Shown here one piece after another: positions 13,524 through 52,044 of a stretch of DNA of 61,094 bases; within the stretch, counting starts at the first letter, position 1; each line of letters opens with the position of its first letter. The position numbers were made by a program, and so were the translations under genes. The stretch is taken from assembly GCA_964561155.1 (NCBI GenBank), contig CAZLOI010000002.1, positions 155,629 to 216,722 of the forward strand, written 5' to 3'. Below the pieces are notes generated by a model. The model was not told the origin of the DNA, ran no database searches, and worked only from the letters and a program-made list of their open reading frames with translations. This DNA comes from an uncultured Candidatus Saccharibacteria bacterium (GTDB taxonomy: Bacteria > Patescibacteriota > Dojkabacteria > J137).

Positions 13524-13556
13524 CTAATATTCTATTCTTGGGTATATAATCCAAGA

Positions 13557-35029: not shown

Positions 35030-37621
35030 TTAACTCAAGCTTTTTAACACCTTTTCTATATCAATACCTTCACCCAACACACCTTCCCACAAGTCTCCAA
35101 CGGCATCTATTCTTTCCCTCATATTCTTTATATGAAACTTCTTTGGATCCAATCCCGGCTTAACCTCCTCCCATTTAAGTGGAGTAGAGACGGTGGCTCC
35201 TTCTGTAGGACGAACAGAGTATGCACAAGCAGTTGTTTGCCCTTTTCGATTCTGTATATAGTCGATATATACCTTGCCTTTTCTGTCTTCTGGAGATCTC
35301 TCCAGACTAACAATCTTAGGTAACCTATTTTGTATCTTAACCGCAATCAGTTCAGCAAAAATCTTAACCTGTTCAAAATCATACTTCGCATCGAGTGGCA
35401 GATATACATGCAAACCTCTCTTTCCAGAAGTCTTGCAATAGCTTGGAATCTTTAATTCCTCACACAACTCATATATTTCCCTAGCCACCTTCACAACATC
35501 CTTGAAATCAACCTCCACAGGGTCTAGATCGAACAGAACATAGTCAGGGTTCTCTAGAGTATCAATCTTTGAATTCCATGGATTAATCTCAATACAACCA
35601 AGATTAGCCATGAAAAGAAGAGTCTCTTTGTTTTGACAAAGAATATAGTCCACATATTTCTTTGTAGAAGATGAATATATCTTCTTTGTAGATACATATT
35701 CCGGATGTTCATTGTCGTAGTCTTTTTGAAAGAAACTTTCTCCATTAATACCATTTGGATGCCTATTCATATTCTGTGGTCGATCTACTAGATATGGCAT
35801 CATTACATCTCCAATATCGTTGTAGTATTCCAACAAATCTCTCTTTGTATACTTCTCCTTTGGCCAATATATCTTGTCGAGGTTACTAAACTCAAGGTTA
35901 GGTAAACCATTTGTACCACTAGCACCATTTCCAGAGCTATTCGAATCTTCATTCTCAATTTGAGATGCATCTACAATCTTCACTCCAACAACATCTTTTG
36001 CTTTCTTGTCCTTCCTAATTCCTAAATATACTGGGTGTCGTAGTACTTGATCCTCTGTCCATTCACTAAACTTAACCTGAACAACAATCTTTGGTTTAAT
36101 CCATTTCTCTACATTATTACTTGGAACAAAATCGGTATTCTTGAACGGATTCTCCTTAACCTCATATTCATCCATCAATTCCTGAAGTTCCTTCATATTC
36201 TCCGAATTGAATCCAGTACCAACATGTCCTCGATATACAAAGTCTCCATTCACATATTCCCCAATTAGAATGGAACCAAAACGTTTCCTTTCTCCTTTTG
36301 GTTTAGTGTATCCACCAATTACAAATTCCTGCTCATTAACCGCCTTAACCTTCAACCAATCCTTGCTTCGATCAGAACTGTAGGTAGAATCCTTTCTCTT
36401 TGCAACAACTCCTTCCATTCCCAAATGTTTTGCACTTTCAAACAATTCAATCCCATCCTTAAAGGTTTCACTTAAACGAACAACGTTGTTTGGTTTAACC
36501 ACTTCTTTTAATATCTCAAGTCTTTTTTCCAAACTCATTCCCCTTAAATCAAACTTGTCGAAATACAAAATATCAAAAACGTAGTACAGTAGTTTCTGGT
36601 TAGAATCTTTGTTCTTCTTTTTGTTTTGAAGTAACTGAAATCTAGAAACACCATCTTCATCTACAGCTACAACCTCTCCATCAAGTACCATGTTCCCTGG
36701 AATCTTTTCAAGCTCAGTAACAATCTCTGGGAAATCTTTGTTAAAGTCCTGATCGTTTCTAGAGTATAGACGTACCTTTCCATTCTTGATTTGAGCCAAA
36801 GCTCTGTATCCGTCCCACTTTAATTCATATATCCAATCAGAATTAGTGAATGGTTCATCGGCAAGGGATGCAAGCATTGGAGATATGGATTCAGGTAGAG
36901 GAGCTTTCTTTGGTTCTTCCGAACTATCGCTTATCAATTCTTTTGTATCAAAGTTACTTTCATTCTCTTTCTTTTTCTCTTTATCTTTAGAACTTTGTAT
37001 ATCAACTTCTTCAAACTCCACTTTCTCTTTTGGTTTACCTTCAGATATTTCCTTTAATGTTCTTCCTGAAACTACAGAAACATCTTCATGAGATATGGCT
37101 TTGTTTGCATATTCATCGTTGTGTTTTATAAGGAGCCAGACGTTTTTGTCTTTGCTTCCAAACTTGTCCTTTGGCTTTATCTTGAATATAGCGAATTCAC
37201 CATTTAGCTTCTTTCCAAATAGCTTAAATTTTAAGTGCCCATCTTTTAAGTGTCTTGATACTGCATCTTCATCTGATTCCTTTTCATCTTTAATTATTGG
37301 TTCAAAGAAACCATTGTCCCAAATCATAACGGTACCTGCACCATAGTTACCTTCAGGAATTGTTCCTTCAAACTTGTTGTATTCGATAGGGTGATCTTCA
37401 ACTTCCATAGCAAGTCTTCGCTCCTTCGGATTAAGTGTTGGACCTTTTGGAACTGCCCAACTTCTCATAACACCTTCGTTTTCTAGTCGAAGATCGAAGT
37501 GTAGTTGAGATGCATGGTGTTTTTGAATAACGAAACGAAGCTTGGAACCAGGCTTTTCAACCTTTCCTTCAGGTTCTGGTGTCTCTTTAAAGTTTCTTTT
37601 CTGATTGTATTTATTAAGCAT
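35030..37621 (-). CDS. ligD: NHEJ DNA ligase D (phosphoesterase-ligase-polymerase)
   Basis: PE: FVIQKHHASQLHFDLRLE; ligase: YELKWDGYR, EGVVAK, WLKVK; polymerase: FDLDP, KTSGKRGLH, YSVRP. Confidence 0.96.
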   Translation of the reverse strand: MLNKYNQKRNFKETPEPEGKVEKPGSKLRFVIQKHHASQLHFDLRLENEGVMRSWAVPKGPTLNPKERRLAMEVEDHPIEYNKFEGTIPEGNYGAGTVMIWDNGFFEPIIKDEKESDEDAVSRHLKDGHLKFKLFGKKLNGEFAIFKIKPKDKFGSKDKNVWLLIKHNDEYANKAISHEDVSVVSGRTLKEISEGKPKEKVEFEEVDIQSSKDKEKKKENESNFDTKELISDSSEEPKKAPLPESISPMLASLADEPFTNSDWIYELKWDGYRALAQIKNGKVRLYSRNDQDFNKDFPEIVTELEKIPGNMVLDGEVVAVDEDGVSRFQLLQNKKKNKDSNQKLLYYVFDILYFDKFDLRGMSLEKRLEILKEVVKPNNVVRLSETFKDGIELFESAKHLGMEGVVAKRKDSTYSSDRSKDWLKVKAVNEQEFVIGGYTKPKGERKRFGSILIGEYVNGDFVYRGHVGTGFNSENMKELQELMDEYEVKENPFKNTDFVPSNNVEKWIKPKIVVQVKFSEWTEDQVLRHPVYLGIRKDKKAKDVVGVKIVDASQIENEDSNSSGNGASGTNGLPNLEFSNLDKIYWPKEKYTKRDLLEYYNDIGDVMMPYLVDRPQNMNRHPNGINGESFFQKDYDNEHPEYVSTKKIYSSSTKKYVDYILCQNKETLLFMANLGCIEINPWNSKIDTLENPDYVLFDLDPVEVDFKDVVKVAREIYELCEELKIPSYCKTSGKRGLHVYLPLDAKYDFEQVKIFAELIAVKIQNRLPKIVSLERSPEDRKGKVYIDYIQNRKGQTTACAYSVRPTEGATVSTPLKWEEVKPGLDPKKFHIKNMRERIDAVGDLWEGVLGEGIDIEKVLKSLS

Positions 37622-38402
37622 TTGCTTCTACTTCTTTAAACTTAATTAAACTCTCCTGCAACAGTTTGGTTAAGTTAGATTCCGAAGCATCGACTCTTTT
37701 CTTTGGTTGTTCAACCTTTACAGTCTTCTTCTTAGACTTTGCATCTATTAGTTTCTTAAGCTTTGCAATATAGTCATCTTTGTATTCTCCAATATCGAAT
37801 TTCTCAGACATCTTTTCTATTAGTTCTGTAGCCATATCAAGTTCCTTGTCATTAACTTCAATCTTCCCTGGAACCTCTAGTTCTTCTGAGTCCTTAATTT
37901 CAGCTTCATACCTTAGTTGATTTAGTACTAGCATATTTCCTCTTGGAGCAATTGTACAAAGTCGTTCTCTGTTTCTCATAACGAATTCAGCAACACCAAC
38001 ACTCTTTGTTTTCTTTAATGCCTTTACCAAAAGAGCGTAGAGCTTCTTTGCCTTAGGATCTGGTTCTATATAGTATGGTGTTTCGAAGTATATCGGATCT
38101 ATTTCATCTTCTTCAACAAACGATGTTAGTTCTATATTCTCACTTTTTTCAAGATCTACATTTTCAAAATCATCTGGTTCCAATACAACGTAGTCTCCTT
38201 TCTTAATTTCATATCCTTTAACTACATCTTTCCATGCTACTTCTTTTCCTGTTCTAACATCTATTCTTGCGTATCTAATTGGAGATTTATCTTTCTTTGA
38301 AAGGAGGTCTAGATCTATTTCGATGGCCTTGGTTGCGCTGTATAGCTTGATTGGAATGTATACTAATCCAAATGTTATTCCGCCTGTCCAGATTGGCCTC
38401 AT
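37614..38402 (-). CDS. ku: NHEJ protein Ku
   Basis: MRPIWTGGITFGLVYIP, VKGYE, IDPIYFETPYY, YKDDY. Confidence 0.96.
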   Translation of the reverse strand: MRPIWTGGITFGLVYIPIKLYSATKAIEIDLDLLSKKDKSPIRYARIDVRTGKEVAWKDVVKGYEIKKGDYVVLEPDDFENVDLEKSENIELTSFVEEDEIDPIYFETPYYIEPDPKAKKLYALLVKALKKTKSVGVAEFVMRNRERLCTIAPRGNMLVLNQLRYEAEIKDSEELEVPGKIEVNDKELDMATELIEKMSEKFDIGEYKDDYIAKLKKLIDAKSKKKTVKVEQPKKRVDASESNLTKLLQESLIKFKEVEANA

Positions 38403-38557: not shown

Positions 38558-38941
38558 ATGGATGAGAGAGGTCTAGAACAAGGAAAGGTTAATTTTGATT
38601 CTGAGAAGGGCATAAAAGTATTGGAGAGTTTGAAGGAAGTTATGAAAGCAGCTGTAGTAACAGCAGATACGGATGAAGCGTGGGAATATATTAAAGACAG
38701 AATAGTATCTCAGGGAGCAATTGATGAGGCACAATTAGGTACTTTTATTTTTAACTGTGTTGCAGATTTTATTAAATTCAAACCTAAAGGTTTAGATAAT
38801 CCAAGATTTAGATTGGAACAAGATTTCTCGCTTATAGCATTCAAACTGGGAGCTAAAAGTTTTAATCTGTTTGATGGCAATGTTCAACTGCAAGCTTGTA
38901 ACTATATAGCTGCCAAGTTGATTGAAAGATTAAGAGCTTAA
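38558..38941 (+). CDS. Hypothetical protein
   Basis: 127-aa ORF. Confidence 0.55.
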   Translation: MDERGLEQGKVNFDSEKGIKVLESLKEVMKAAVVTADTDEAWEYIKDRIVSQGAIDEAQLGTFIFNCVADFIKFKPKGLDNPRFRLEQDFSLIAFKLGAKSFNLFDGNVQLQACNYIAAKLIERLRA

Positions 38942-39002: not shown

Positions 39003-39093
39003 GGAGAGGTACTCAAGTGGTTAAGAGGGCACATTGCTAACGTGTTAGTAGACCAAAAGTCTAGCGCGGGTTCGAATCCCGCTCTCTCCGCCA
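39003..39093 (+). tRNA. tRNA-Ser(GCT), long variable arm, CCA encoded
   Basis: GGAGAGG acceptor, loop TTGCTAA, V-arm TAGAC-CAAAA-GTCTA, GCGGG-TTCGAAT-CCCGC, ends CTCTCCGCCA. Confidence 0.93.
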
Positions 39094-39297: not shown

Positions 39298-39990
39298 TTC
39301 CGTCCCTCTCTTTTAGAGATAACAAACTGGAGACTTACACCCGATGGTACTTCATATAGATTAGGATATATATCTGGAAGATTAAAAGGTTATGAACGTG
39401 ATGAAGATCTACATGAATTATTTGGGAAAAAGAAAGAAGAACCTAAAGCAGAATTAGATCCCGAGAAACTTTCAAAGTATTCAAATACTGCAGAAATAGC
39501 AAGACTGTTTGCCAAGGTAGAAATAACAGATCGGTTAAGAAAGAAGAGATTGGAAAAGGAACCTGAAGGTTTCTTTTTAGAAGATAGAGAATCTGGTTAT
39601 TCATGTAATCTTTGTTATAAAGGTCTTAGAGGTAGTGAAGCTTGGTGGAACTTAGACGGTATTCAATGTGTTGATTGTAGAAGAAATGTAAAAGATGGGA
39701 TAATCCCTGCTGAAATTATTAAGAATCATGATCTTTGGATTGCAAATTGGCAATTTAAAAGTGAATTTCGATTACATTCTGCTACAGTTAGCAAAATGAA
39801 ACGAAATGGTGAACTCATCGGTCGAGAATTAAAAGATTTAGAAGGTAAGACTTACTTTACTGTTTACATGGTTGAAGATAATAAAAAGTTCTTTAAGAAG
39901 CATAGAAAGACTTCAAGCAATAATAGAAAATGGGAGTTTGTTGATAAGGATGGAATTGAGATATTACTTCGATTGATTCAAAATTTGTAA
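39298..39990 (+). pseudogene. 5'-damaged gene for a CxxC...CxxC protein
   Basis: Frame is open from 39298 with no ATG, GTG or TTG before the TTG at 39550; an in-frame ATG at 39226 is followed by three TAA stops; YSCNLC and IQCVDC motifs. Confidence 0.5.
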
Positions 39991-40018
39991 TGTAATACAA
40001 AGCTACTGAATATCTATA

Positions 40019-40028
40019 GGTGATATAA
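40019..40028 (+). promoter_or_regulatory. Extended -10 promoter (TGATATAAT) for the island operon
   Basis: gTGATATAAT about 37 nt upstream of ATG 40066; same motif precedes many host genes. Confidence 0.5.
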
Positions 40029-40065
40029 TCTTAAACATCTATTTCAGAACGAGCTTAATTCTACT

Positions 40066-41115
40066 ATGGTGAATGTAAATTTTGATAGGGAGTACTATAA
40101 AAATTTAATAGCGAAACATGGGTATCAAGAGCTAAATATTTCTGCAATTGACTTCAATCTTGGCAATATTAACAAAGATATACTTCAGAGAAAATGGTTA
40201 TGCCATAGTAAAGGAAACATATTTGCTAAAGAACTTCTAAACACAAAATCAATTGTAACAACTGGTATAGGAATAAGTGGTGCTCCACATATGGGCACTT
40301 TAGGACAAATTTTTAATTCTATATTCCTTCAAAATCACGGTATCAATACGCAATTTGTATTGGGAGATTTAGATGCTTATAACGGTAAAAAGCTTTCATT
40401 ATCTTACGTAAGAGAACTTTCAGAGCAGTATAAATCATTTATTACTAACTTAGGCTACTCTACAACGAATGGAAATATATTAAGGAATCAGTTTGATGCA
40501 AATGAAGTTACTAGGACCATGTACCTAATTGCAAAGTTTATAGAAGATAAAGATTTTGATAATGTAGAAGAAGATCTTCACAACTTTTATTCTGATAAAG
40601 GAAAAGTAGATAAGGATATGTCCTTTAGACGTAAGACTTCTCTTACTCTTATGACTGCAGATTTTATAGATCTTGTTATCAATCACAGTTTTACTAACGT
40701 GTTAGTTACATTAGGAGTAGATGAACATAGGTATGTTTTGTTTTCAGAAAAGATTCTCGAAAGAGTTATAGAATCCGGTGAAATATTACCGAGCGACAGT
40801 AATATAAATTTTGGAGCAATGTACACTCACATAATCAGAGGTTTTAATAACTATCCTAAAATGTCGAAATCATTCCCTGATTCTTCCATAAATATTGAAA
40901 TGAATTCAGATGACATAAGAAATAGAATCTTGAATGAAAAAACAAACAAAATTCCAGAAGAAGACACTGTATATCAAATGATGTGTCTAGTAAGTAAATT
41001 TAATAGTGAGGACCTGTCTGAAAGATATATTGCATGCAAAGAAGATAAAGCATTATGGAAGAAATATAAAAGTGACTATATAGAATACTTGATAGATATT
41101 TTTAAACTGTGGTGA
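40066..41115 (+). CDS. Divergent class Ic aminoacyl-tRNA-synthetase-like protein (archaeal/eukaryal TrpRS-like)
   Basis: TTGIGISGAPHMGT (HIGH equivalent), LGDLDAY, LGVDEH (AIDQ equivalent), PKMSKSFPDSSI; N-terminal YKNLIAKHG..LQRKWLCH resembling eukaryal/archaeal TrpRS. Confidence 0.75.
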   Translation: MVNVNFDREYYKNLIAKHGYQELNISAIDFNLGNINKDILQRKWLCHSKGNIFAKELLNTKSIVTTGIGISGAPHMGTLGQIFNSIFLQNHGINTQFVLGDLDAYNGKKLSLSYVRELSEQYKSFITNLGYSTTNGNILRNQFDANEVTRTMYLIAKFIEDKDFDNVEEDLHNFYSDKGKVDKDMSFRRKTSLTLMTADFIDLVINHSFTNVLVTLGVDEHRYVLFSEKILERVIESGEILPSDSNINFGAMYTHIIRGFNNYPKMSKSFPDSSINIEMNSDDIRNRILNEKTNKIPEEDTVYQMMCLVSKFNSEDLSERYIACKEDKALWKKYKSDYIEYLIDIFKLW

Positions 41116-41116
41116 A

Positions 41117-42244
41117 ATGAAAAAATTTGCAAATGGCATACAATTTAATAACCCCTTACACGAAGCAATATATCGAATAAACGTAGGGCAAGATATAACG
41201 GAAGAGATGGCATACAATGCTTTCACCTACACACTTAATATTGAGGATGAAATCAATCGTGGAGTCTGCTTAGGAGTATTACTGAATGGGATAGTTTCCA
41301 AAAGACCTCAAATACATGAAATCCTCGGTATATTAAAAGCAACGCTTGATTATGACGGGATAGATATCACAAATCAAAAGAGATTGGAGATGCCTAACAA
41401 TGCACGAGTAATAGGTTATGCAGGGAGTGGTAAAAAAGGTATAAAAACTATTAATGTATCCTCTTGTGCCGCCATTGTAGCTGCCACAGCCGGTACTTAT
41501 GTGGCAAAATCATGTTCTGGTTCTACATCATCTGTATCAGGATCTGCAGATTTCATTGAAATTTTAGGTGCTAATATTAGCCAAACCAATGAAGAGATGA
41601 TAGATATAATGAAAAAGACTGGTTTAGGTTTCTTTAAGATTGAAAAAATGATCCCTAAGTTTGATAAGGTGTATGGAGGCCATTTTTATGCACCTAATGC
41701 TTTAAGCTTTGGATTAGCAGGAATTCTGTTACCTTTTAGACCTGATAATTTATTTTACGGTTTAGCTCATCCTAATATCCATTTACTTATCAACGTGCTA
41801 AAAGAATTAAATTATCGTTATGCATTCGTTGCATCAACAACTGATGATGGAGTGCACTTTCTTGATGAGATTGGAATATTTGGTATGACTTCAGTTATTG
41901 GTATTCAGGAGCATAAGATAGGTCATACTCTTACTTTTTCTCCAGCAGAAGATTTGAAATTACAAGGATATAATAGAAGCTCAATTGAACCTGGTAAGTC
42001 TAGATTGGAGAATGTGAAAATGGGTGTCGATGTATTAAGAGGGAAAGGCCAAATAGCTCATGAAGATTTGATTTGTGTAAATGCAGGAACCTTACTATGT
42101 TTAGACAAAAAAGCTAAAGATTTAACAGAAGGTTACACTATATCAAAAGAAATTATTAAATCAGGGAAAGCAATAGAAAAATTAATTGAATTTATTATTG
42201 CTACTGATGGTGATCTCAATACTTTAAATCAGTTTTTAGACTAA
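41117..42244 (+). CDS. Anthranilate phosphoribosyltransferase (TrpD)-like, glycosyltransferase family 3, altered motifs
   Basis: GSGKKGIKTINVSSCAAIVAA, VAKSCSGSTSSVSGSADFIEILG, GLGFF, FLDEI. Confidence 0.8.
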   Translation: MKKFANGIQFNNPLHEAIYRINVGQDITEEMAYNAFTYTLNIEDEINRGVCLGVLLNGIVSKRPQIHEILGILKATLDYDGIDITNQKRLEMPNNARVIGYAGSGKKGIKTINVSSCAAIVAATAGTYVAKSCSGSTSSVSGSADFIEILGANISQTNEEMIDIMKKTGLGFFKIEKMIPKFDKVYGGHFYAPNALSFGLAGILLPFRPDNLFYGLAHPNIHLLINVLKELNYRYAFVASTTDDGVHFLDEIGIFGMTSVIGIQEHKIGHTLTFSPAEDLKLQGYNRSSIEPGKSRLENVKMGVDVLRGKGQIAHEDLICVNAGTLLCLDKKAKDLTEGYTISKEIIKSGKAIEKLIEFIIATDGDLNTLNQFLD

Positions 42245-43264
42245 TTGAAAGCAATAAAAAATTATAAAAATAAAATAGAATATACAGATATACCTGAACC
42301 AAAAGTTGATGAAAAGTTTAATGTATTAGTAAGAGTAATGTCAGTTGGTTTATGTGGAAGCGATGTACAAAGAATAGATTTTATTAATTCAAGTAATCAA
42401 GAAATAAATCATCCAGTTTTAGGTCATGAAATTTCTGGAATTATCGAAGAAATAAAAGGAGATCAAGCTACTTTTAAAGTAGGAGACAGGGTGGCAATCG
42501 AGCCAATTATTTACTGTACTGATTGTAAATATTGTAAAGATGGGAATTTCCAGTTTTGTGAGAATATTATTGCACTAGGTAAAACAATTAATGGTGGGTT
42601 TGCTCAAAAAGTGGCTGTCCCAGTACAAAATATACATAAATTACACGATGACATAGACTTCGACAGAGGAACCTTGCTTGATCTATGCTCTGTTTGTGTC
42701 CATATTCATAATTTAGCAGGTGATTTTTCAGGAAAAAATATCGCAATAATCGGCGACGGTGCAGTAGGGCTAATGACAGCCTTATTTGTAGAAATATACG
42801 ATGGCAATGCAACTGTTATTGGAAAAAGAACAAGTGGTGATTATAATTTTATAAATTATTTGGATGATAAGAAACTAGAAGAAATTGAGTCTACTTTTGA
42901 CATAGTTATAGAAACTGTTGGTAGAAAAAATCTCACTTCCCTTAATCAGGCAATATCACTAAGTAAGATAAAAGGAAAAATTGTTGTAGCAGGTGTATTT
43001 GCTCCAGAGTTTATGCTGCCAATAACTGCACGAACACTTTTTTATAAAGAAATTAGCCTTGTTGGAGCTAATTCATATAGTTACGATCATAATAAATCAA
43101 GAAGTGAGACTTTAGCTGCAATTGAAATATTAAACAAACATTATAAGAAGCTGAGTAGTCTTATAACTCACAAGTACCCTCTTCAGAAATTTGAGGATGG
43201 ACTTAATGCATTTAGAAATAAGGATACAAGCCATGCAATAAAAATAGTATTTAATCCAAATTAA
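42245..43264 (+). CDS. Zinc-dependent medium-chain dehydrogenase (sorbitol/threonine DH-like)
   Basis: GLCGSD, LGHEISG, CTDCKYCKDGNFQFC, GDGAVG, KIVFNP; TTG start abutting the previous stop. Confidence 0.9.
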   Translation: MKAIKNYKNKIEYTDIPEPKVDEKFNVLVRVMSVGLCGSDVQRIDFINSSNQEINHPVLGHEISGIIEEIKGDQATFKVGDRVAIEPIIYCTDCKYCKDGNFQFCENIIALGKTINGGFAQKVAVPVQNIHKLHDDIDFDRGTLLDLCSVCVHIHNLAGDFSGKNIAIIGDGAVGLMTALFVEIYDGNATVIGKRTSGDYNFINYLDDKKLEEIESTFDIVIETVGRKNLTSLNQAISLSKIKGKIVVAGVFAPEFMLPITARTLFYKEISLVGANSYSYDHNKSRSETLAAIEILNKHYKKLSSLITHKYPLQKFEDGLNAFRNKDTSHAIKIVFNPN

Positions 43265-43285
43265 TTTAACTTTTATTAAAAATTT

Positions 43286-44182
43286 ATGAGTACAAAAGAA
43301 GAATTATATAAAAAGTATCCTTGGTTAGAAGTAACAACTACAATGGTTGATTATGTAAAGCCAAGTTACTACGATAAGATTATTAAGGAATATGAATATA
43401 AAGGAAAGAGTGATTTAGATTATACAATTGATTTTCTAAAAGATCAGACAGGAAAGGGATTAAATGTTGTTGAATTTGGAGCAGGTACAGGTAGAGGTAC
43501 AAAACTTATAATGGAAAACATCGATTTTAATAAGCTAACTCTTGTGGATTTAAGTCCTCAAATGATGGAGACCCTAAAGGAATTATTCAGTAAGGATTCA
43601 CGGGTACAGTTTGCACAAAGTGATCACCTAAACTTTATGGAATCTACAGAAGATGCCTTCGATGTAATGATAACACTATGGAGTTTATCTCACTCTATCC
43701 ATCAACATTTTGGAAGAAATAAAGGAGATGATACTAAGATGGTTCAAATACTAAAAAAGTTCTTCACTAATAATATATCTAAGGAAGGAAAAGCATTCAT
43801 TATCCACTTCGATACACTATCAGATGAGCAAAGAATTTTAACTAAACAATGGGCAAAAGTTTATCCTACCTTTGCTGATTATTACCACAACAAAATTCAA
43901 TCTCCTTCTAAACAAATCGTTGATAAAGTATTAAACGAACTAAAGGAAAACAATACTATTTCATACAATTCTGACCATATAATAGGAGATGAAATCATTT
44001 ATAAAGACATGAATGAGGCACTAGAGGTATTTATGAATTTTCATTTAGAATCACATTTCAATCAATTGGATATTGTCCAAGAAGTTGTAGAAGATTTAAC
44101 AAATGAACTAAATAAATATAAAGCCGAAGATGGAACAATCAGAGTTAAGCCAGGCTTTTTCCTATACACTATAACAAGATAA
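43286..44182 (+). CDS. Class I SAM-dependent methyltransferase
   Basis: VVEFGAGTG, LVDLSPQMM, FDVMIT. Confidence 0.82.
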   Translation: MSTKEELYKKYPWLEVTTTMVDYVKPSYYDKIIKEYEYKGKSDLDYTIDFLKDQTGKGLNVVEFGAGTGRGTKLIMENIDFNKLTLVDLSPQMMETLKELFSKDSRVQFAQSDHLNFMESTEDAFDVMITLWSLSHSIHQHFGRNKGDDTKMVQILKKFFTNNISKEGKAFIIHFDTLSDEQRILTKQWAKVYPTFADYYHNKIQSPSKQIVDKVLNELKENNTISYNSDHIIGDEIIYKDMNEALEVFMNFHLESHFNQLDIVQEVVEDLTNELNKYKAEDGTIRVKPGFFLYTITR

Positions 44183-44187
44183 TTGAA

Positions 44188-45042
44188 ATGACTAAACCCG
44201 AGAATTCTAAACTAATCGTATTAGATATTGACAACACTATAAATACTAAAAATCTAAATGGAGAAATTCAATTAGTTAAAGAATTTATAGAATTACACAC
44301 TAAGATCGATTTAAAGAAGAATATTAAAATTGCTTATAATACAACTAGGGGAATCTCTCGTGTTTTGGAAATGCTAAAAGGTGAACAGGAATATTTCGGT
44401 AATGGAGTAATATCAGCATTGAATGGCTCATTGATCTACGATCTTAAAAGTATGCAACAACTTGAAGGTTATACAATCTCTGCAGAAACTAGGAAAATGT
44501 TATCTGAATGGTTTGTAGAAAGTACGGATATAACTTTTATGGCATTTTATACCAATAATGATATATATGGTCATGTATATTTGAAAGATGCTAATACTGT
44601 TGATGAATTCTATAAATTGCATGAATCTTCTTTTAATCATGGGAAATATAGATGTATATCTGATCCTAAGATCTATGCTTCATGGATTGAACAAAAAGAT
44701 ATCAATATGATTGAATTCAAAACAGCTAATGAAAATAAAACAAATAAATTCCTAATTAATAATCCCACGATAAACGTCTCATTTGATGGGCATTTTTATA
44801 TTAATCCTAAAGGTATAAATAAAGGATCAGGGTTAAGAGATCTAATAAAGTTTCTTTATAAAGATGAAAGCAATTTAGACACTATAGTTGCTGGTGATTC
44901 TAAAACAGATTTAGCTATGTTTTCGGATTCAAATTATATGAATATCATTGTAGGAGAAAGATTACAAGAAATTAGAAATGATAATTATACAAGAGTAAGG
45001 GATCCAAAAGAATTGTGTAGTATTTTAAGTAAGTTATTATGA
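44188..45042 (+). CDS. HAD-superfamily (IIB/Cof-like) phosphatase
   Basis: DIDNT motif I, NTTR, KGINKG, GDSKTD. Confidence 0.85.
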   Translation: MTKPENSKLIVLDIDNTINTKNLNGEIQLVKEFIELHTKIDLKKNIKIAYNTTRGISRVLEMLKGEQEYFGNGVISALNGSLIYDLKSMQQLEGYTISAETRKMLSEWFVESTDITFMAFYTNNDIYGHVYLKDANTVDEFYKLHESSFNHGKYRCISDPKIYASWIEQKDINMIEFKTANENKTNKFLINNPTINVSFDGHFYINPKGINKGSGLRDLIKFLYKDESNLDTIVAGDSKTDLAMFSDSNYMNIIVGERLQEIRNDNYTRVRDPKELCSILSKLL

Positions 45043-45959
45043 ACATATCAAGCAAAACAAAAGTTAACAGTGTATACCAATTACCCGCTAATAAAAATCA
45101 ATTATTAAAATTATCTGATATAACTACTTTGGGAAGTAAATATAGCCGGATGAAATATGGCTCTCAGTTAGCAATCAGAGATTTTGCAGAGATGGTATAT
45201 AGTCAATACGAGAAGGACTTTGATTATAAAAATGGTGATTTGTACATAACATCCACACTAACCTCAGACATTGATTCTAGCTCACATTTTATTGCAAGAG
45301 AACTTCAGGAAATTATCAATAGAAAAAGATTAAAACTTAACCTCAAGTCTTGTAAATATATTGTGCTTCTTGCACGAAAGAAAATACTTATTAGCAGTGA
45401 TTACGGAAAAGTACAGAATAAAAAAGATAGAATTCAATCACAAGGTAATATGGAACTTATAACATATCCAAATCTTAAGTCTGATGATTTACTACTTGTT
45501 ATTAATGATTGTTTCGTGACCGGTGCTCAATGGGAACTACAAGAAGAATTATTGAGAAGTAATAGGTTAACCTCTCTTATTAATTATTACTATATTATTA
45601 AATTTACTGAATCAAACGGTAACTTTGATATTAGTGTAGAAGACTTAATGAACAACTATGAAGTTAATAATGATTTAGATTTCTTAAATTTAATTATTAA
45701 GCTTTCGAAAGACAAACAGTTAACTTGGAATAAAAGAACATTATTAAGGTCACTAAATCTTAATCAAAAACATTTTGTACTATTTATAGATGGGTTGAGA
45801 GTCGAAGATTTAGAGACTCTTTGTAATAATTCAGTATTATCAGATACACATCTTGTAAATAATGGAGAGTTTGCAAACAAAATTGATTACATGTTCAACG
45901 TGTTGAAGGATAAATCCAGAGAGAAGGATTCGAACCTCCGAAGCCCTAAGGACGCCTGA
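45039..45959 (+). CDS. ComF-related type I phosphoribosyltransferase (PRTase_3-like)
   Basis: YSRMKYG..AIRDFA, SSDYG, PRPP-loop-like VINDCFVTGAQ; last about 15 codons are tRNA-Tyr antisense. Confidence 0.6.
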   Translation: MNISSKTKVNSVYQLPANKNQLLKLSDITTLGSKYSRMKYGSQLAIRDFAEMVYSQYEKDFDYKNGDLYITSTLTSDIDSSSHFIARELQEIINRKRLKLNLKSCKYIVLLARKKILISSDYGKVQNKKDRIQSQGNMELITYPNLKSDDLLLVINDCFVTGAQWELQEELLRSNRLTSLINYYYIIKFTESNGNFDISVEDLMNNYEVNNDLDFLNLIIKLSKDKQLTWNKRTLLRSLNLNQKHFVLFIDGLRVEDLETLCNNSVLSDTHLVNNGEFANKIDYMFNVLKDKSREKDSNLRSPKDA

Positions 45960-45998
45960 TTTACAGTCAGGTGCGATTGACCGCTCCGCCATCTCTGG
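45915..45998 (-). tRNA. tRNA-Tyr(GTA) with C1:G72, A73 and long variable arm
   Basis: CCAGAGA...TCTCTGG-A acceptor, CCTGA-CTGTAAA-TCAGG, V-arm GTCC-TTA-GGGC, GGAGG-TTCGAAT-CCTTC; upstream TGTTATACT promoter. Confidence 0.92.
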
Positions 45999-46128
45999 AT
46001 ATGAGAAAGTATAACAAAAAGTGGGCTATTTTAGTATGTGATGTTACGATAATACAAGACTTTTTGATGAAAAAAGTTTAAAATTAGGCCAAATAAAATT
46101 AAGAATACTATTTATTCATAAAGAACGT

Positions 46129-47253
46129 ATGTTAGACAATCTAAAAAATATAACAGAAGAAATTCTAGGAGAAGAAAGACTCGTAGAGCTATTAAATTCT
46201 AATATACAACCAGTACACTATATTGGATTTGAAATATCAGGAAAACCTCATATCGGTTCAGGTATTGTTACCATGATGGTTATAAAGGAGCTATTGAAGC
46301 TAAATGTTAAATGTAAGATATTTTTAGCTGATTGGCATTCATGGATTAATAACAAACTAGGAGGAGACATCGATTTTATAAGGGAGGTAGGCATCCCTTA
46401 TTTTAAAGAAAACATGTTAGCTGCAGCAAAATGCGTAGGCGTTGACCCATCTAATATCGAATTCGTAAACGGTTCAGACCTTGCAAAAGATATGCAATAC
46501 TGGGCTACAGTAGTAGATGTTGGTAGAAATACTAGTCTATCTAGAATTCAAAGAAGTATTACCATTATGGGAAGAAAAGAAGGAGATAGTGTAGATTTTG
46601 CAAAATTAATGTACCCAGCTATGCAAGCAGCAGATATTTTCTACATGGGTGTTCATATTGCTCATGCTGGTATGGATCAACGTAAGGCACATGTTATTGC
46701 TATCGATGATGCAAATCATATGGACATAAATCCGATAATAGTAAACGATAAAAAATTTAAACCAGTAGCAGTTCATCAGCATTTACTAATGGGTCTTACC
46801 CCTCCTTCAAAAGAAATATTAGAACGGATTGAGAAAGGAGAAATTTCTCCAAAGGATGTTTTAGGTGAATTGAAGATGAGTAAAAGTAAGCCAGATAGTG
46901 CTATCTTTATGAATGATTCAGAAGAAGAGGTAATTAGAAAGATTAATAAAGCTTATTGCCCCGAGGGAATTACTATATTAAATCCAGTTTTAGACTGGGT
47001 AGAAAACCTATGTTTCAAATTCCCAAATCCTGAGATTAAAATTGAAAGAGATGAGAAATGGGGTGGAAATATTACATACAAAACATACGAAGAACTAAAG
47101 AATGATTTTGAACAAAAAAAATTACATCCTAGTGATTTAAAAAAAGCAGTAGCGTTATTTATAAATGATTTACTTAGACCTGCCAGGGAACATTTATCTA
47201 AACAAGAGATTGTGGAAATGGCAAAGAAGATAGAAGAAAAGGTAACTAGGTAA
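46129..47253 (+). CDS. tyrS: Tyrosine--tRNA ligase, archaeal/eukaryal type
   Basis: YIGFEISGKPHIGSG, LADWHSWIN, MYPAMQAADI, GMDQRKAH, KMSKS, KKLHPSDLK; no S4 domain. Confidence 0.93.
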   Translation: MLDNLKNITEEILGEERLVELLNSNIQPVHYIGFEISGKPHIGSGIVTMMVIKELLKLNVKCKIFLADWHSWINNKLGGDIDFIREVGIPYFKENMLAAAKCVGVDPSNIEFVNGSDLAKDMQYWATVVDVGRNTSLSRIQRSITIMGRKEGDSVDFAKLMYPAMQAADIFYMGVHIAHAGMDQRKAHVIAIDDANHMDINPIIVNDKKFKPVAVHQHLLMGLTPPSKEILERIEKGEISPKDVLGELKMSKSKPDSAIFMNDSEEEVIRKINKAYCPEGITILNPVLDWVENLCFKFPNPEIKIERDEKWGGNITYKTYEELKNDFEQKKLHPSDLKKAVALFINDLLRPAREHLSKQEIVEMAKKIEEKVTR

Positions 47254-47886
47254 ATGAATAATTCTCAAATAGATAAAAAACAATTTACTTTTAAATACAA
47301 CAATAAGACTTCAAAAGTTCTTATAATCACAGGACCAAGATCAGTAGGAAAAACTACCCTTGCAAAACAATTTTGCGAATCTATAGGTACAGATTTTCTG
47401 GATCTCGATGATTTAGTTAACGATGAGTTAAGCAAATCATTTGCGACTGGCTCAAAAACGCCTTTAGAGCAAGCTATGGAAGCAAAGAATTACGACTTAA
47501 TAGAAAGTATAGTTCGAGATATTGTTCAAAGTTTTGGTAATATAAATCAAGCTACTGCCATTGCTTTTGCTGGAGGAGCCTACACAGGCTATAAAGGGTT
47601 ATCAGAAGATTTGAAATCAAAATTTATTACAACTGCACTAATCCCCTATGATAATGACGACGAACTATCAATTAAATTATTAATCGAGAGAGAATCTAAT
47701 CGAGAGCATTTCAAAAAACTTATTAATGAAGGGAAGATAGATATGGAAACTTTGTCTAACCGTGTACGTAATGATTACATTAAAGTAAATACTTATCTAA
47801 GAACAAGTACAATAGATAAATTAATTTTTATCCAACAAAAAACTCCTATCGAAATAATGAGTGAGATGCTGGATTTATTAAAGTAG
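47254..47886 (+). CDS. P-loop kinase, shikimate-kinase-like
   Basis: GPRSVGKTT Walker A, DLDD, FAGGA, RESNR lid-like segment. Confidence 0.6.
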   Translation: MNNSQIDKKQFTFKYNNKTSKVLIITGPRSVGKTTLAKQFCESIGTDFLDLDDLVNDELSKSFATGSKTPLEQAMEAKNYDLIESIVRDIVQSFGNINQATAIAFAGGAYTGYKGLSEDLKSKFITTALIPYDNDDELSIKLLIERESNREHFKKLINEGKIDMETLSNRVRNDYIKVNTYLRTSTIDKLIFIQQKTPIEIMSEMLDLLK

Positions 47887-47889
47887 AAT

Positions 47890-48636
47890 ATGAGATATTT
47901 AGAATATAAATTTGATAATTTCAAAATATTAGTTAGAAATATTGAAGAAGCTCAACGAATTGTAAACGAGAAGTTTGAGAAAGAGGAATATAAATTCGAA
48001 CTAAGGACAGAAACACCATTCATTATTGATTGTGGTGCACACATAGGAATAACCAGTCTATATTTCAAAAAACTTTTTCCTGAAAGCAAGATTCTTGCTT
48101 TTGAACCTGATGCAGAAAATCATAAACTCTATAACGAAAATATGAAATTAAATGGATTACACAATGTAGAATGTGTAAATGCAGCTTTAATGGATAAAGA
48201 AGGAGAAGGAAGTATGTTTATTCGAAGTGAAACTGAATCACCTTGGACATGGGCAAACTCAATTGTGAAAAATATTTGGGGTCCTAATAATCCCTATAAT
48301 AAAGAAGTTAAAATCAACACTAAAAGACTTTCCGAATATATTACAAAAAAGGTTGATCTCTTGAAATTAGATATTGAAGGAGCTGAAGAAACAGTTTTAA
48401 AAGAAATAGAAGACAAGTTGATTAATATTGAAAACATTGTCCTAGAGTTTCATGGTACTAAGTACAATAGAGAAACTAATGACATTCTAAGAATAGCAAA
48501 TTTATTGCTTTCGAATGACTTTCAGATAACTATAACACCAGTGGATCTAACTCAGAATCCATCTGAGCACTTTAAACAATATGTTAAAGAAGTAGAACTA
48601 AGACACTTTATTGTAAAGGCGACTAGGTCTTTTTAA
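47890..48636 (+). CDS. FkbM-family methyltransferase
   Basis: IDCGAHIG, AFEPD, LLKLDIEGAE, LEFH. Confidence 0.88.
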   Translation: MRYLEYKFDNFKILVRNIEEAQRIVNEKFEKEEYKFELRTETPFIIDCGAHIGITSLYFKKLFPESKILAFEPDAENHKLYNENMKLNGLHNVECVNAALMDKEGEGSMFIRSETESPWTWANSIVKNIWGPNNPYNKEVKINTKRLSEYITKKVDLLKLDIEGAEETVLKEIEDKLINIENIVLEFHGTKYNRETNDILRIANLLLSNDFQITITPVDLTQNPSEHFKQYVKEVELRHFIVKATRSF

Positions 48637-49533: not shown

Positions 49534-52044
49534 TTAGTTTTGAGTTGTAAAAGAGCGTACAGTACTCCAAACACTCATTCCACCTTGATTAATACTTCTA
49601 ACTCTCCAGTAGTATTTCGTTGATTTTGATAGGCTCATACTAGAAACACCCGTTGAAAGAACAGAACCATTGTAGGTTAGTGTACTAAATGTTGAAGATG
49701 TAGATACTTGTAGATTGTATCCAACTGCTCCAGTACTACTATTCCAAGATATCTTAGGCCTTGTATTAGATATACCTGTAGCTGAGTTAGCTGGCTTATA
49801 CAAAGTTGGTACACTAGGTACAGCAGGAGCTACAGTTGTTGGTATATTTAATCCCATAGCTACCAAAGGTAGTGTATGAGTAGACGAAGCAAATGCTGCG
49901 TTATAGCTTAGGTTAAAGTTAGTAGCTCCGTATAGTTCTACTTCCTTTCCTACCAAACTACCCTTCAATGTTAATCCTGTAGCCCTTATCTTAACTACGC
50001 CATTTGGAGCATACATTAATCCTAGGTTTCTATTTCCTGTACTATTAACTTCTATATTTGTTCCAGCATATAGCAGTACTCCATTGTTTGGATCTCCTGT
50101 TTGGAAGGTACTGTCTGTAGTTACATCGTTAATGGATCCAGTAGCTACGATACTTACAGGACCGCTTAATCCAACATCTACCATCTTCACATTACCTTCT
50201 ACATACAATATTCCCTTTAACTGAGAACTTACAGAATCTAAGTACAAATCAGATGGGAATACTACAGTAGCAAGAGATTTGTATAGACTTAATGGATATG
50301 AAAGCATTGGAACAGAGGATACTCCAGTTACTATACTTGGTACTTGTATGTTTGTATTTGTATTCTTAATTAGGTTTGATGTTCCAACAGTTTTAAATGT
50401 AGTTCCAAATATTCCACCAGTGTTTCCACCAAATGTTGTTGTTCCTCCAGAATATATATCTCCTGTAATATTGACTCCTGTGGTGTTTGTAAATCGCAAG
50501 CTATCCGCAGTACCGTTTGAATATATTACATACTTATTTATGATGATTGGACCTGAGTCTTTAAAGAGCTCTTGATTTCCTGCATTATCTGTTGCTCTAA
50601 ATACGAATCTAGATACTCCGTTACCTGTTATTTGGAAAGTGTTGTTGGAACCATTCATTGTTATCCAATTAGTTCCACCATCCATACTTCTTTGTTGGGA
50701 TTCAACTCCAGACAGATTGTCTGTAGAAGAGAGTCCTGCGGTAACGTTGTCTCTAAATATTCCATTGGTATCTCTTGGTCCAGTAGCGTTTCCCGAAGTA
50801 ACAGGAGGAGTCCAGTCTATCTTTACTTGAACAGATTTACTTGACTCTGTGTTACCAACTCCATCTACAGAGTAATATGTGATGTTGTGAATACCTTCTT
50901 GATTGATTGTGAAAGAACCTGAGTATTGTTGCTGTGATCCTCCATTAATAGAATAGTAGGTTTTTAGGTCTTCAGATCCACAAGGGGCACTTGCGAATAA
51001 ATTTACCTGAACCGCTGATCTCCACCAACTATTGTTACCAGGCGTTTCTCCACTGATATTTGCCGTACTGGAAGGTGGGGTTGTACATGCTGGTGGATTC
51101 TCTCCTGGAGGAGTTCCAGAGCCTCCACCAGAATCAGAAATAAATGGTACTACGCTGCAGGTAGATTGAGCCGATACGCTTTTTATAAATGGGGATCTAA
51201 ATGATGAACCGCTATCATTTTTTAAAGCTTGAGCCCCTTCAACACATTGATTGTTAAGTGTAATATTAAAATATCTAGTTGTATGGGCAGGTACATTTAC
51301 GTTTCCTATATTTGCATTATTAAAACTGTCATTCGCTCTTAGAGTTACGAGTCCGGCAGGAACTTCAGGAAAGTAATATGTCCCATTGGTTGATTTCTGT
51401 GAATAGAAGTTTCCATTCGCAGCTTCTAGGGTGACTATGGTGGGATTTACATTTACTTGACCGTTCGTATTCTTGATATATCCGCCAATCCCTCCAGTAT
51501 CAACATCAGGGACATTAAAGTGAATATATCTAGTTGCAGGAGCTAAATTAAACCGCTCTCCAAAGTTTCCATCAAAACCCACATTATATTCCGAAACATC
51601 AATGTTCCCATTAGGGTGTACATATTCGACATATGCAACATGCCCGTGACCCCACTCAGCAACAGAACCAATTACTGGAACATTATTTACAGTAAACGAA
51701 GTGTCTGTAGCGTTAGCAATAGCAGTAGCCCAATGACCTGCGCTTCCAAACCTACTTTCTTGACTAGACCCATACATAGTATTGTGGAAAAAATATGGTG
51801 CGCTAGCAGTACCTCTATCCTGATTGATCTTCCAGGCTACGTATGATGTGCATTCTCTCTTGTAAAACCCCCACTCATCGCCATCATAGTAACTGCCTTC
51901 TATTCTACCTGATGGTCCGTCACTATGTGGGTACCCTGTAGGATCATTATTTACAGCCAACACATCACCTATGAAACTAAATATTCCACCTAACGGAGAG
52001 AACAGCATTAATAGGGATAAAAAAGTAAACAAAAAAAGCCGCAT
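49534..52044 (-). CDS. Secreted multidomain CHAP peptidoglycan hydrolase (CHAP, beta-sandwich repeats, FN3)
   Basis: Signal peptide from ATG 52044 with AAGGAG SD; YKRECTSYV and WGHGHVAYV..VSEYN; two repeats YYSINGG...YYSVDGVGNTE and RSMDGG...FRATDNAGNQE; C-terminal WNSSTGAVGY...YYWRVRS. Confidence 0.82.
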   Translation of the reverse strand: MRLFLFTFLSLLMLFSPLGGIFSFIGDVLAVNNDPTGYPHSDGPSGRIEGSYYDGDEWGFYKRECTSYVAWKINQDRGTASAPYFFHNTMYGSSQESRFGSAGHWATAIANATDTSFTVNNVPVIGSVAEWGHGHVAYVEYVHPNGNIDVSEYNVGFDGNFGERFNLAPATRYIHFNVPDVDTGGIGGYIKNTNGQVNVNPTIVTLEAANGNFYSQKSTNGTYYFPEVPAGLVTLRANDSFNNANIGNVNVPAHTTRYFNITLNNQCVEGAQALKNDSGSSFRSPFIKSVSAQSTCSVVPFISDSGGGSGTPPGENPPACTTPPSSTANISGETPGNNSWWRSAVQVNLFASAPCGSEDLKTYYSINGGSQQQYSGSFTINQEGIHNITYYSVDGVGNTESSKSVQVKIDWTPPVTSGNATGPRDTNGIFRDNVTAGLSSTDNLSGVESQQRSMDGGTNWITMNGSNNTFQITGNGVSRFVFRATDNAGNQELFKDSGPIIINKYVIYSNGTADSLRFTNTTGVNITGDIYSGGTTTFGGNTGGIFGTTFKTVGTSNLIKNTNTNIQVPSIVTGVSSVPMLSYPLSLYKSLATVVFPSDLYLDSVSSQLKGILYVEGNVKMVDVGLSGPVSIVATGSINDVTTDSTFQTGDPNNGVLLYAGTNIEVNSTGNRNLGLMYAPNGVVKIRATGLTLKGSLVGKEVELYGATNFNLSYNAAFASSTHTLPLVAMGLNIPTTVAPAVPSVPTLYKPANSATGISNTRPKISWNSSTGAVGYNLQVSTSSTFSTLTYNGSVLSTGVSSMSLSKSTKYYWRVRSINQGGMSVWSTVRSFTTQN

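Follow-up and report, generated by a model that had tools for sequence, protein, structure and literature searches.

The stretch of DNA studied here (the window; 61,094 nucleotides from a contig labelled Candidatus Saccharibacteria) carries an operon of six co-oriented open reading frames (ORFs) on the + strand at 40066-45959, with successive gaps of 1, 0, 21, 5 and -4 nt. An extended -10 promoter element, TGATATAAT, was read directly from the sequence at 40021-40029 on the + strand, ~37 nt 5' of the first ATG. A generic -35/-10 consensus scan did not list this element because it has no -35 part. The GC content drops to 0.28-0.34 over 40-49 kb, compared with about 0.35-0.38 in most of the remaining 1-kb windows. 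A tRNA-Ser(gct) gene lies upstream (39003-39093, +), separated from the operon by an interval that holds one further ORF (39550-39990), and a tRNA-Tyr(gta) gene lies at the 3' end of the operon (45914-45999, -). An earlier interpretation made from the letters alone (the sequence-only reading) had already described the six ORFs with this exact spacing, a single extended -10 promoter, an AT-rich setting and a placement between two tRNAs, and all of these were reproduced. No cis-element of Rfam was found in this island of the window.

The six domain labels of that reading were likewise verified with Pfam and NCBIfam. The first gene (40066-41115, +) encodes a 349-aa paralogue of the class Ic aminoacyl-tRNA synthetases (aaRSs), here called RSL, which was recognized by PF00579 (39.8 bits vs 21.1), by its motifs and by an AlphaFold (AF2) model. 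It is followed on the same strand by genes for a TrpD-like protein of glycosyltransferase family 3 (41117-42244; PF00591, 117 bits vs a gathering score of 27) and for a Zn-dependent medium-chain dehydrogenase/reductase (ADH; 42245-43264). The latter resembles threonine and polyol-phosphate dehydrogenases, and its translation shows the catalytic and structural Zn ligands as well as a GxGxxG motif. The next two genes encode a class I S-adenosylmethionine (SAM)-dependent methyltransferase (43286-44182, +; Pfam/NCBIfam) and a HAD-IIB (Cof-type) phosphatase (44188-45042, +), the top NCBIfam match of which is a YcsE-related phosphatase of riboflavin metabolism. The last gene (45039-45959, +) encodes a divergent ComF-like phosphoribosyltransferase (PRTase) of the PRTase_3 family with a borderline score (27.8 bits vs a gathering score of 28.7). 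This protein is close to an orphan, with two close homologues and 36 relatives among 1.84 billion representatives; these relatives score 64-67 bits and are bona fide PRTase_3 proteins. The last ~46 nt of its gene (45914-45959) are antisense to tRNA-Tyr, so that the complement of the tRNA encodes the C-terminal residues, and the Dojkabacteria orthologue is 3 aa shorter.

The functional unit of the window reaches past 45959, to tRNA-Tyr and to the genes for a tyrosyl-tRNA synthetase (TyrRS) and a kinase. By blastn, positions 39982-47988 (+) share 92.5% nucleotide identity with a Dojkabacteria metagenome-assembled genome (MAG), JAUQWV010000001.1 (locus L005), and the flanks of this block are unrelated between the two. 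The 8-kb block holds the promoter, the six ORFs, tRNA-Tyr, an archaeal-type TyrRS gene (46129-47253, +; NF006330, 391 bits vs a cutoff of 220, thus passing the equivalog model), a gene for a shikimate-kinase-like P-loop kinase (47254-47886, +) that follows the TyrRS stop codon with a 0-nt gap, and the start of a gene for an FkbM-family methyltransferase (47890-48636, +). Only the first ~100 nt of the FkbM gene fall within the block, and its membership of the unit is uncertain. The block represents a transferable or co-inherited unit. Since the gene order of the window recurs both in the Dojkabacteria genome and on three metagenomic contigs, the arrangement is not due to chance. Integrase-type insertion at tRNA-Tyr was rejected because the block contains no integrase gene and no significant att-like direct repeat was found at tRNA-Tyr, the sole 11-nt match falling inside tRNA-Ser. 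Dojkabacteria is the label of the nearest relatives of both the island (RSL, 95% identity) and the TyrRS (66%), in contrast to the window contig, and the Saccharibacteria label of the latter may therefore be unreliable.

For a wider comparison we used 60 genomic loci encoding relatives of RSL (58 for tRNA and HIT counts), whose neighbouring genes were clustered de novo and then annotated with Pfam and NCBIfam. Co-occurrence was counted for genes within 8 kb of RSL in the 38 loci that had 5 kb or more of sequence on either side, and the HAD counts were taken from a seeded phmmer search. The TrpD-like and ADH genes were each present in 35/38 loci, TyrRS in at least 32 and a HAD gene in at least 24, while all four occurred together in 23/38. 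These counts are lower bounds, since in high-GC loci true genes are concealed by spurious antisense ORFs. Pairwise identities of RSL co-varied with those of the TrpD-like protein and the ADH (r = 0.89 and r = 0.90, respectively; Mantel p = 0.001) and less with those of TyrRS (r = 0.67). The recurrent set thus consists of RSL, the TrpD-like protein, the Zn-dependent ADH, a full-scoring TyrRS and a HAD phosphatase of several non-orthologous types, of which the Cof type also serves in loci L028 and L062.

The core of this cassette is RSL, the TrpD-like protein, the Zn-dependent dehydrogenase/reductase and a HAD phosphatase, and not the six-gene set of the sequence-only reading, which does not recur as a whole outside the window lineage. 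Among the 60 loci, orthologues of the methyltransferase, the HAD-IIB phosphatase and the PRTase_3 protein were found only in the window contig itself (L004) and in L005; the methyltransferase, a putative tailoring enzyme, and the ComF-like PRTase are specific to this lineage. The earlier biochemical logic of a PRTase, a HAD phosphatase and redox chemistry was partly supported: a phosphoribosyl-type transferase, a phosphatase and redox tailoring do recur, whereas this methyltransferase and the second PRTase belong to the window lineage only. Variable neighbours included glycosyltransferases, methyltransferases, radical-SAM enzymes, AAA_33 and APH kinases, a metallophosphoesterase, GTP cyclohydrolase III and a nucleotide pyrophosphatase. 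HIT hydrolase genes were present in 14/58 loci, but not in the window. The window P-loop kinase is homologous to a kinase domain of Woesearchaeota locus L033, where a single 389-aa protein (13151-14320) consists of a shikimate-kinase-like P-loop domain fused to the cassette HAD phosphatase. No trpE, trpG, trpC, trpF, trpB or trpA was found among the ten proteins of the island or among the annotated recurrent neighbour families of the 60 loci (F2, F4-F8, F10 and a dozen smaller ones), and the earlier statement that this is not the trp operon holds: it is a real accessory biosynthetic operon.

Two deviating layouts were noted among these loci. A Bacteroidota MAG (L017, 2568-12126) and a Methanosarcinales MAG (L021) share one extended gene order, namely TyrRS, GTP cyclohydrolase III, B12-radical SAM, HIT, HAD, nucleotide pyrophosphatase, RSL, TrpD-like, ADH and HAD, a likeness that is either cross-domain transfer or mis-binning. 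A Bdellovibrionales locus (L037, 7490-13473) and a Moranbacteria locus (L038, 7481-9902) keep the RSL-TyrRS pair and have a LuxE-like AMP-binding enzyme and an aldehyde dehydrogenase instead of the TrpD-like protein and the ADH, an arrangement that points to a different route to the acceptor.

A search of 5.8 billion proteins placed RSL in a family of at least 187 clusters, most of them 40-53% identical, with members of about 350 aa. They occur in Patescibacteria, Woesearchaeota, Nanoarchaeia, Heimdall- and Thorarchaeota, the Bacillus cereus group, Clostridium beijerinckii and actinomycetes, and are named either "hypothetical" or, in JGI auto-annotation, "tryptophanyl-tRNA synthetase". The scores of RSL lie far below the NCBIfam equivalog cutoffs by which we defined a canonical tryptophanyl-tRNA synthetase (TrpRS; 176.75 for TIGR00233, 320-891 for the PRK12285 models): it obtained 42.8 bits with TIGR00233 and 45.3 bits with NF008925, and was rejected as a canonical TrpRS. 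It was equally rejected as a canonical TyrRS, given its 41.6 bits with NF006330 (cutoff 220) and 15.5 bits with TIGR00234 (cutoff 113.8) and the lack of a conserved counterpart of Y32, which together with D158 recognises the tyrosine hydroxyl in the M. jannaschii TyrRS. In an alignment of 24 diverse members, the motifs P74-H75-x-G77-T78 and K265-M-S-K-S269 were invariant, and the usual GxDQ motif was replaced by an invariant G-[IV]-D-E-H. The AF2 model of RSL is confident (pLDDT 89.5, pTM 0.90) and, in Foldseek, gave full-length matches to archaeal/eukaryotic TrpRS (TM 0.71) and archaeal TyrRS (TM 0.62-0.73) with a probability of 1.00 at 13-17% identity. RSL is thus equally distant from TrpRS and TyrRS and, by its domain match, motifs and modelled fold, a member of the class I aaRS superfamily with the subclass Ic fold. 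Because it fails the equivalog models and matches the fold over its full length, it is a complete class Ic synthetase-like enzyme that is neither TrpRS nor TyrRS. The sequence-only reading was therefore correct in placing an aaRS paralogue with intact adenylation motifs at the centre of the operon, but its label "TrpRS-like", and with it the automatic annotation of many homologues as tryptophanyl-tRNA synthetase, needs to be corrected.

The amino-acid pocket of RSL was compared by profile alignment with that of the Methanocaldococcus jannaschii TyrRS (MjTyrRS), and these residue mappings are indicative only. The Tyr-hydroxyl-binding D158 corresponds to a near-invariant D199 and Y151 to a conserved Tyr/Phe, while Q173 is replaced by an invariant Glu, Q155 by an invariant Met, and Y32 has no conserved counterpart. 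This pattern would fit, rather than prove, an altered aromatic amino-acid site. RSL is predicted to be an ATP-dependent activator and ligase of an aromatic amino acid, probably tyrosine. Cyclodipeptide synthases are aaRS-derived tRNA-dependent transferases without the HxGT and KMSKS motifs (PMC2922099). The ATP motifs are missing from their aaRS-Ic-like Rossmann domain, and so is the C-terminal domain that binds tRNA. RSL, in which both ATP motifs are present and which can be aligned with TrpRS/TyrRS over its full length, including the C-terminal domain, was therefore rejected as a cyclodipeptide synthase.

The TrpD-like protein also departs from its namesake. It scored 147 bits with TIGR01245, below the cutoff of 199.05, and among 39 members of its family an invariant GSGKKG stands where TrpD has the PRPP (phosphoribosyl pyrophosphate)-binding GTGGDG. 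The His and Asn of the KHGN motif are gone; the SS..GSAD segment has been retained, as has the Mg-binding D-E pair. With a sub-cutoff score and both GTGGD and KHGN gone, it was rejected as a canonical anthranilate phosphoribosyltransferase and, on these sequence features, forms a distinct subfamily of glycosyltransferase family 3 (the TrpD/nucleoside phosphorylase superfamily), for which PRPP use is plausible. The cassette proteins thus have the same folds and Pfam families (PF00591 and PF00579) as canonical TrpD and TrpRS and keep the D-E pair of TrpD, but differ from them in their sub-cutoff scores, in having GSGKK instead of GTGGD, in the loss of KHGN, in the absence of trp genes nearby and in having TyrRS as partner. 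The two PRPP-dependent ribosylations that had been proposed for the operon are not a general feature, since only RSL, the TrpD-like protein, the ADH and a HAD protein co-occur elsewhere and the ComF-like PRTase is confined to the lineage of the window.

The genomic partner of RSL was TyrRS and never TrpRS, and together with the equal distance of RSL from TrpRS and TyrRS this removes the basis for describing the operon as one of "Trp-pathway paralogs". The neighbouring synthetase passed the tyrS equivalog model in archaeal, CPR (Candidate Phyla Radiation), clostridial, proteobacterial and actinomycete loci, so that it was a genuine TyrRS in every lineage tested. Two TyrRS genes were present in 12 loci. 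In Woesearchaeota, two TyrRS genes lie directly 5' of RSL, one of the bacterial type (403 aa, S4 domain included) and one of the archaeal type (337 or 374 aa). The cassette TyrRSs of a Bacillus plasmid, a Woesearchaeon and Saccharopolyspora are all of the T. thermophilus / 6BQY / 6BYQ subtype. In the Bacilli locus L028, the operon-internal TyrRS is 74% identical to that of an adjacent TyrRS gene. Only this adjacent gene has a T-box leader (UAC specifier) in front of it, and tRNA-Tyr comes after it; the operon-internal copy is therefore a local duplicate without this leader. Because the TyrRS copies of different lineages belong to several unrelated subtypes, TyrRS has been recruited repeatedly and independently. 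That TyrRS genes of differing origin came to lie beside RSL independently argues for functional coupling, against mere co-inheritance.

The TyrRS of the window itself is of the archaeal type that is common in CPR bacteria and DPANN archaea. Orthologues with 66% and 87% identity are found as solitary genes in relatives without the cassette, one of which (L074) has neither tRNA-Tyr nor the P-loop kinase beside the orthologous gene. It is therefore probably the resident TyrRS of the lineage, here embedded between cassette genes. In three unrelated lineages the cassette lies directly beside what looks like the host's own TyrRS: in the window (45914-47253) next to tRNA-Tyr and the archaeal-type TyrRS, in Bacilli (L028, 7551-10472) next to T-box-tyrS-tRNA-Tyr, and in Woesearchaeota (L006/L008) with an archaeal-type TyrRS 5' of RSL. 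Targeted insertion, recombination through tyrS and selection for co-regulation are candidate explanations for this adjacency. T-box control of the cassette was rejected, as none of eight Firmicutes loci had a T-box upstream of RSL and T-box(UAC) elements occurred only before the neighbouring second TyrRS in L028 and L062. A Pyl-like cassette for genetic-code expansion was also rejected, as the 58 loci contained no dedicated suppressor or unusual tRNA but only ordinary tRNAs, including tRNA-Tyr(GTA) in 4 loci.

The cassette is horizontally mobile and has moved between bacteria and archaea. Its hosts comprise CPR bacteria, DPANN archaea, Clostridia, Bacilli, Alphaproteobacteria and actinomycetes, and in view of its presence in free-living Firmicutes and actinomycetes its occurrence is no peculiarity of a minimal CPR genome, where the sequence-only reading had called such a cluster striking. 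In the Bacillus cereus group, the genes are ordered RSL, TrpD-like, ADH, HAD, major facilitator superfamily (MFS) transporter and tyrS, with transposases on both sides and a MobA/MobL relaxase nearby. The complete B. thuringiensis plasmid pBMB172 (NZ_CP021438.1) bears this cassette at 110240-116636, between IS6/recombinase and IS4 insertion sequence (IS) genes, and its first two genes are annotated "hypothetical protein". A tblastn search of 50,697 phage records gave no match to RSL homologues, and a phage origin was rejected on this basis.

Taken together, we interpret the operon as a lineage-specific version of this widespread mobile cassette, the product of which would be a nucleoside-like antimetabolite linked to tyrosine, TyrRS serving for immunity or as a back-up of the target, a reading that we hold with about even confidence. 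The nucleotide and sugar-phosphate genes among the variable neighbours (GTP cyclohydrolase III, the nucleotide pyrophosphatase, kinases, glycosyltransferases and methyltransferases) also speak for it. The TrpD-like enzyme would join a base or an arylamine to a phosphorylated pentose. The dehydrogenase would then oxidise or reduce the sugar, one option being the conversion of a ribosyl into a ribityl group (ribosylamine to ribitylamine), and the HAD phosphatase would remove the phosphate; such a reduction and dephosphorylation would parallel riboflavin biosynthesis. In an ATP-dependent step, RSL would activate an aromatic amino acid (tyrosine being the likeliest), which it would then transfer to the nucleoside-like acceptor. 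The product would mimic tyrosyl-adenylate or the 3' end of Tyr-tRNA and hit TyrRS or tyrosine use in competitors or hosts, and the linked TyrRS would supply immunity or target back-up. Further self-protection, as well as export, would in some lineages come from HIT hydrolases, kinases, APH-like enzymes and an MFS pump; immunity to aminoacyl-nucleotide antibiotics through HIT hydrolases has been documented (PMC7157772). In the window, the methyltransferase, the second PRTase, the shikimate-kinase-like kinase and perhaps the FkbM methyltransferase would tailor the product. The aminoacyl-adenylate mimic with self-immunity proposed by the sequence-only reading is consistent with features of other lineages, namely the extra TyrRS copies in 12 loci, the MFS exporter of the Bacillus plasmid and the HIT genes.

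Several points weigh against this interpretation. To the observed gene content, motif conservation, co-occurrence, mobility and TyrRS linkage it adds substrates, an order of steps, a product and a target that we infer. The tyrosine specificity of RSL is a guess from genomic context, because the Y32 counterpart is lost and Q155 and Q173 are changed; likewise, PRPP use is unproven and the substrates of the TrpD-like enzyme are uncertain because its canonical PRPP-binding motif is lost. TyrRS was absent within 8 kb in 6 of the 38 complete loci, five of them high-GC actinomycete loci, in which antisense ORFs can mask genes, and the sixth a Woesearchaeota locus (L014); a Woesebacteria locus (L066) had no TyrRS within 9 kb. 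The window encodes no exporter, and its single TyrRS is orthologous to the stand-alone TyrRS of relatives, so that a role as immunity copy is not demonstrated here. Finally, the operon-internal TyrRSs of L028 and L062 were identical to the housekeeping copies at all first-shell catalytic and Tyr-binding residues, a mapping onto the G. stearothermophilus TyrRS that is indicative only. No target-site resistance was thus seen at first-shell positions, and immunity by these copies, if any, would not act through an obvious active-site change.

The canonical active sites of these TyrRS copies would suit a tRNA-dependent pathway, in which the linked TyrRS (and, in the window, tRNA-Tyr) supplies Tyr-tRNA(Tyr) and RSL, via its C-terminal domain, moves tyrosine to the nucleoside-like acceptor. 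The cluster-encoded SerRS VlmL of valanimycin biosynthesis provides a precedent. Such a route would account for the full-length aaRS architecture of RSL with its C-terminal helical domain, for the tRNA-Tyr gene within the shared block and near the cassettes of L028 and L055, and for the position of the cassette beside the host's own TyrRS in three lineages. We nevertheless regard it as doubtful, since RSL keeps the invariant HxGT and KMSKS motifs that cyclodipeptide synthases have lost (PMC2922099), the hosts already have a TyrRS and need no extra copy for supply, and tRNA-Tyr lies near the cassette in only about 4/58 loci. A related alternative is that RSL is not an antibiotic ligase but the centre of a novel pathway in CPR bacteria, DPANN archaea and others that is coupled to tRNA(Tyr) or TyrRS. 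In one such pathway, the TrpD-like, ADH and HAD enzymes would make a ribosylated or ribitylated tyrosine derivative with which tRNA-Tyr is charged or Tyr-tRNA modified. We consider this alternative unlikely, but if true it would represent a new layer of translation chemistry or symbiont-host interaction and not a secreted toxin.

The varied subtypes of the linked TyrRSs, which by sequence appear to be functional synthetases, could also be read as protection against a free tyrosine analogue or another non-proteinogenic metabolite: a more discriminating TyrRS would safeguard translation in the producer, and RSL would have a side role in activation or detoxification. Specialised, more selective TyrRS duplicates are documented, as TyrZ of B. 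subtilis protects translation against D-Tyr (PMC9437257). However, no aminotransferase, hydroxylase or mutase was found among the conserved neighbour families, the core enzymes suggest sugar-phosphate or nucleoside chemistry, and a greater selectivity of the cassette TyrRSs is putative, which makes this explanation quite unlikely.

The accessory, patchy and mobile nature of the cassette would also suit an anti-phage or conflict system, in which a nucleotide-like inhibitor is made on infection, as by prokaryotic viperins or other defences that modify nucleotides, instead of a secreted antibiotic. Defence genes do occur in its surroundings: a DndB/HEPN (Swt1-type) protein is encoded 3' of the cassette on a Paceibacterota contig (L064, 10619-12823), and restriction-modification and OLD-type genes lie near an orthologous TyrRS (L072). 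In addition, the radical-SAM gene of actinomycete loci is weakly similar to viperin. Yet PADLOC 2.0 gave no match for the six operon proteins, and only generic P-loop matches for the window kinase, so that a known anti-phage defence system was rejected. Moreover, no homologue was found in the 50,697 phage records, the MFS transporter and the plasmid/IS context in Bacillus fit export, and the systematic TyrRS linkage is without known precedent in defence systems. We therefore judge this explanation highly improbable. Ordinary housekeeping genes, that is, a divergent TrpRS or TyrRS with a trp-operon remnant or chance-adjacent metabolic genes, would agree with the JGI auto-annotation and the frequent divergence of CPR proteins, but are hardly tenable for a gene set with an RSL that reaches 42-45 bits where TrpRS models require 176-451 and 41.6 bits where the TyrRS model requires 220, a TrpD-like protein below its cutoff without GTGGD and KHGN, no other trp genes among the conserved neighbours, and a patchy conservation across domains of life that extends to a plasmid.

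The closest known kind of system to the proposed antimetabolite cassette is a gene cluster for an aaRS inhibitor in which a copy of the targeted synthetase is also encoded, and the closest enzymology is that of an aaRS-paralogue ligase such as MshC. Clusters with a second target synthetase include those for agrocin 84 (the LeuRS AgnB2), albomycin (a SerRS copy), indolmycin (a resistant TrpRS) and mupirocin (an IleRS copy). The Trojan-horse inhibitors among these have been reviewed (PMC8323819). Like these clusters, the cassette is a compact operon that, in lineages other than that of the window, is physically linked to an extra copy of one specific aaRS, lies on mobile DNA, has an exporter in some versions and is predicted to combine nucleoside and aminoacyl chemistry. 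It differs from them in that the target would be TyrRS, in that RSL, the GSGKKG-bearing TrpD-like protein and the medium-chain dehydrogenase are unrelated to their enzymes, in that the linked TyrRS shows no obvious active-site change, and in that the hosts include CPR and DPANN organisms. An extra synthetase was found elsewhere (the 12 loci with two TyrRS genes, the tyrS of pBMB172 and the L028 duplicate), while the window shows one TyrRS, orthologous to that of its relatives. We know of no natural-product cluster linked to TyrRS. None was found in the full-text literature either, in which most subscription journals are not covered and absence is no proof. In mostly non-subscription literature, we also found no description of the cassette, of biosynthetic genes for SB-219383, of clusters combining an aaRS-like and a TrpD protein or of resistance-guided mining with TyrRS. 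The sequence-only reading, which did not recognise the combination as a described system, agrees with these searches of full texts from few subscription journals.

MshC is a CysRS-like ligase in mycothiol synthesis that acts after a glycosyltransferase and a phosphatase, and GluQRS/YadB is an aaRS paralogue that acts on a non-tRNA acceptor. Like both, RSL has the catalytic domain of a class I aaRS, its ATP motifs intact, and a predicted use outside translation; with the MshC pathway, the cassette shares the proposed sequence in which a sugar-type acceptor is built and dephosphorylated before an amino acid is added. In contrast to MshC and GluQRS, RSL belongs to subclass Ic (TyrRS/TrpRS) and to a separate family without a curated model, the acceptor would come from a TrpD-like instead of a GT4 enzyme, and neither system is known to be linked to the cognate synthetase.

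Operons associated with Ter genes, which contain a PRTase, a HAD protein and others, were reportedly predicted by Anantharaman, Iyer and Aravind in 2012 to make a nucleoside-like metabolite. The window operon resembles them in having a PRTase_3-type (ComF-like) PRTase and a HAD protein in a small operon with a predicted nucleoside-like product. However, no Ter domains of the TerD/TerC type were found by Pfam in the island proteins, PRTase_3 is borderline, lineage-specific and outside the cassette core, and an aaRS paralogue and a TyrRS link are not Ter features, so that the cassette does not belong to these operons. As in microcin C-type systems (PMC7157772), some loci have a HIT-family gene beside genes for a predicted aminoacyl-nucleotide-like compound acting on an aaRS, but the cassette has no MccB-type adenylyltransferase or precursor peptide, and HIT genes are absent from most loci and from the window.

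If the antimetabolite interpretation is correct, a natural product acting on tyrosyl-tRNA synthetase would for the first time be assigned to a gene cluster, one built on an uncharacterised family of aaRS paralogues and an uncharacterised TrpD-like subfamily. The cassette is small (4-6 genes) and occurs in ultra-small episymbionts of the CPR and DPANN groups, where a diffusible antimetabolite could shape how these organisms interact with hosts or competitors. A direct test is feasible because the cassette also occurs in cultivable, genetically tractable organisms, namely B. thuringiensis C15 (plasmid pBMB172), Clostridium beijerinckii HUN142 and Saccharopolyspora spinosa NRRL 18395; further cultivable carriers are Streptomyces, Nocardia and Amycolatopsis strains. 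Complete genomes with the cassette include those of S. spinosa (CP185864.1) and a Nocardia sp. (CP108798.1).

Some neighbouring genes of the window deserve mention. A complete non-homologous end joining (NHEJ) pair is encoded on the - strand at 35030-38402, in what is apparently a small CPR genome. Its first member is an 863-aa LigD that combines a 3'-phosphoesterase, an ATP-dependent ligase and a Prim-Pol domain, and the gene after it encodes Ku. The ORFs at 38558-38941 and 39550-39990 (+), which separate Ku from the operon, had no Pfam, NCBIfam or PADLOC match; the second, a Cys-rich one (CxxC...CxxC), falls narrowly outside the block that the window has in common with the Dojkabacteria genome. 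On the other side of the operon, at 49534-52140 (-), an 868-aa protein combines an N-terminal CHAP (peptidoglycan amidase/peptidase) domain with a C-terminal Ig-like domain and could be a cell-wall-acting factor of an episymbiont.

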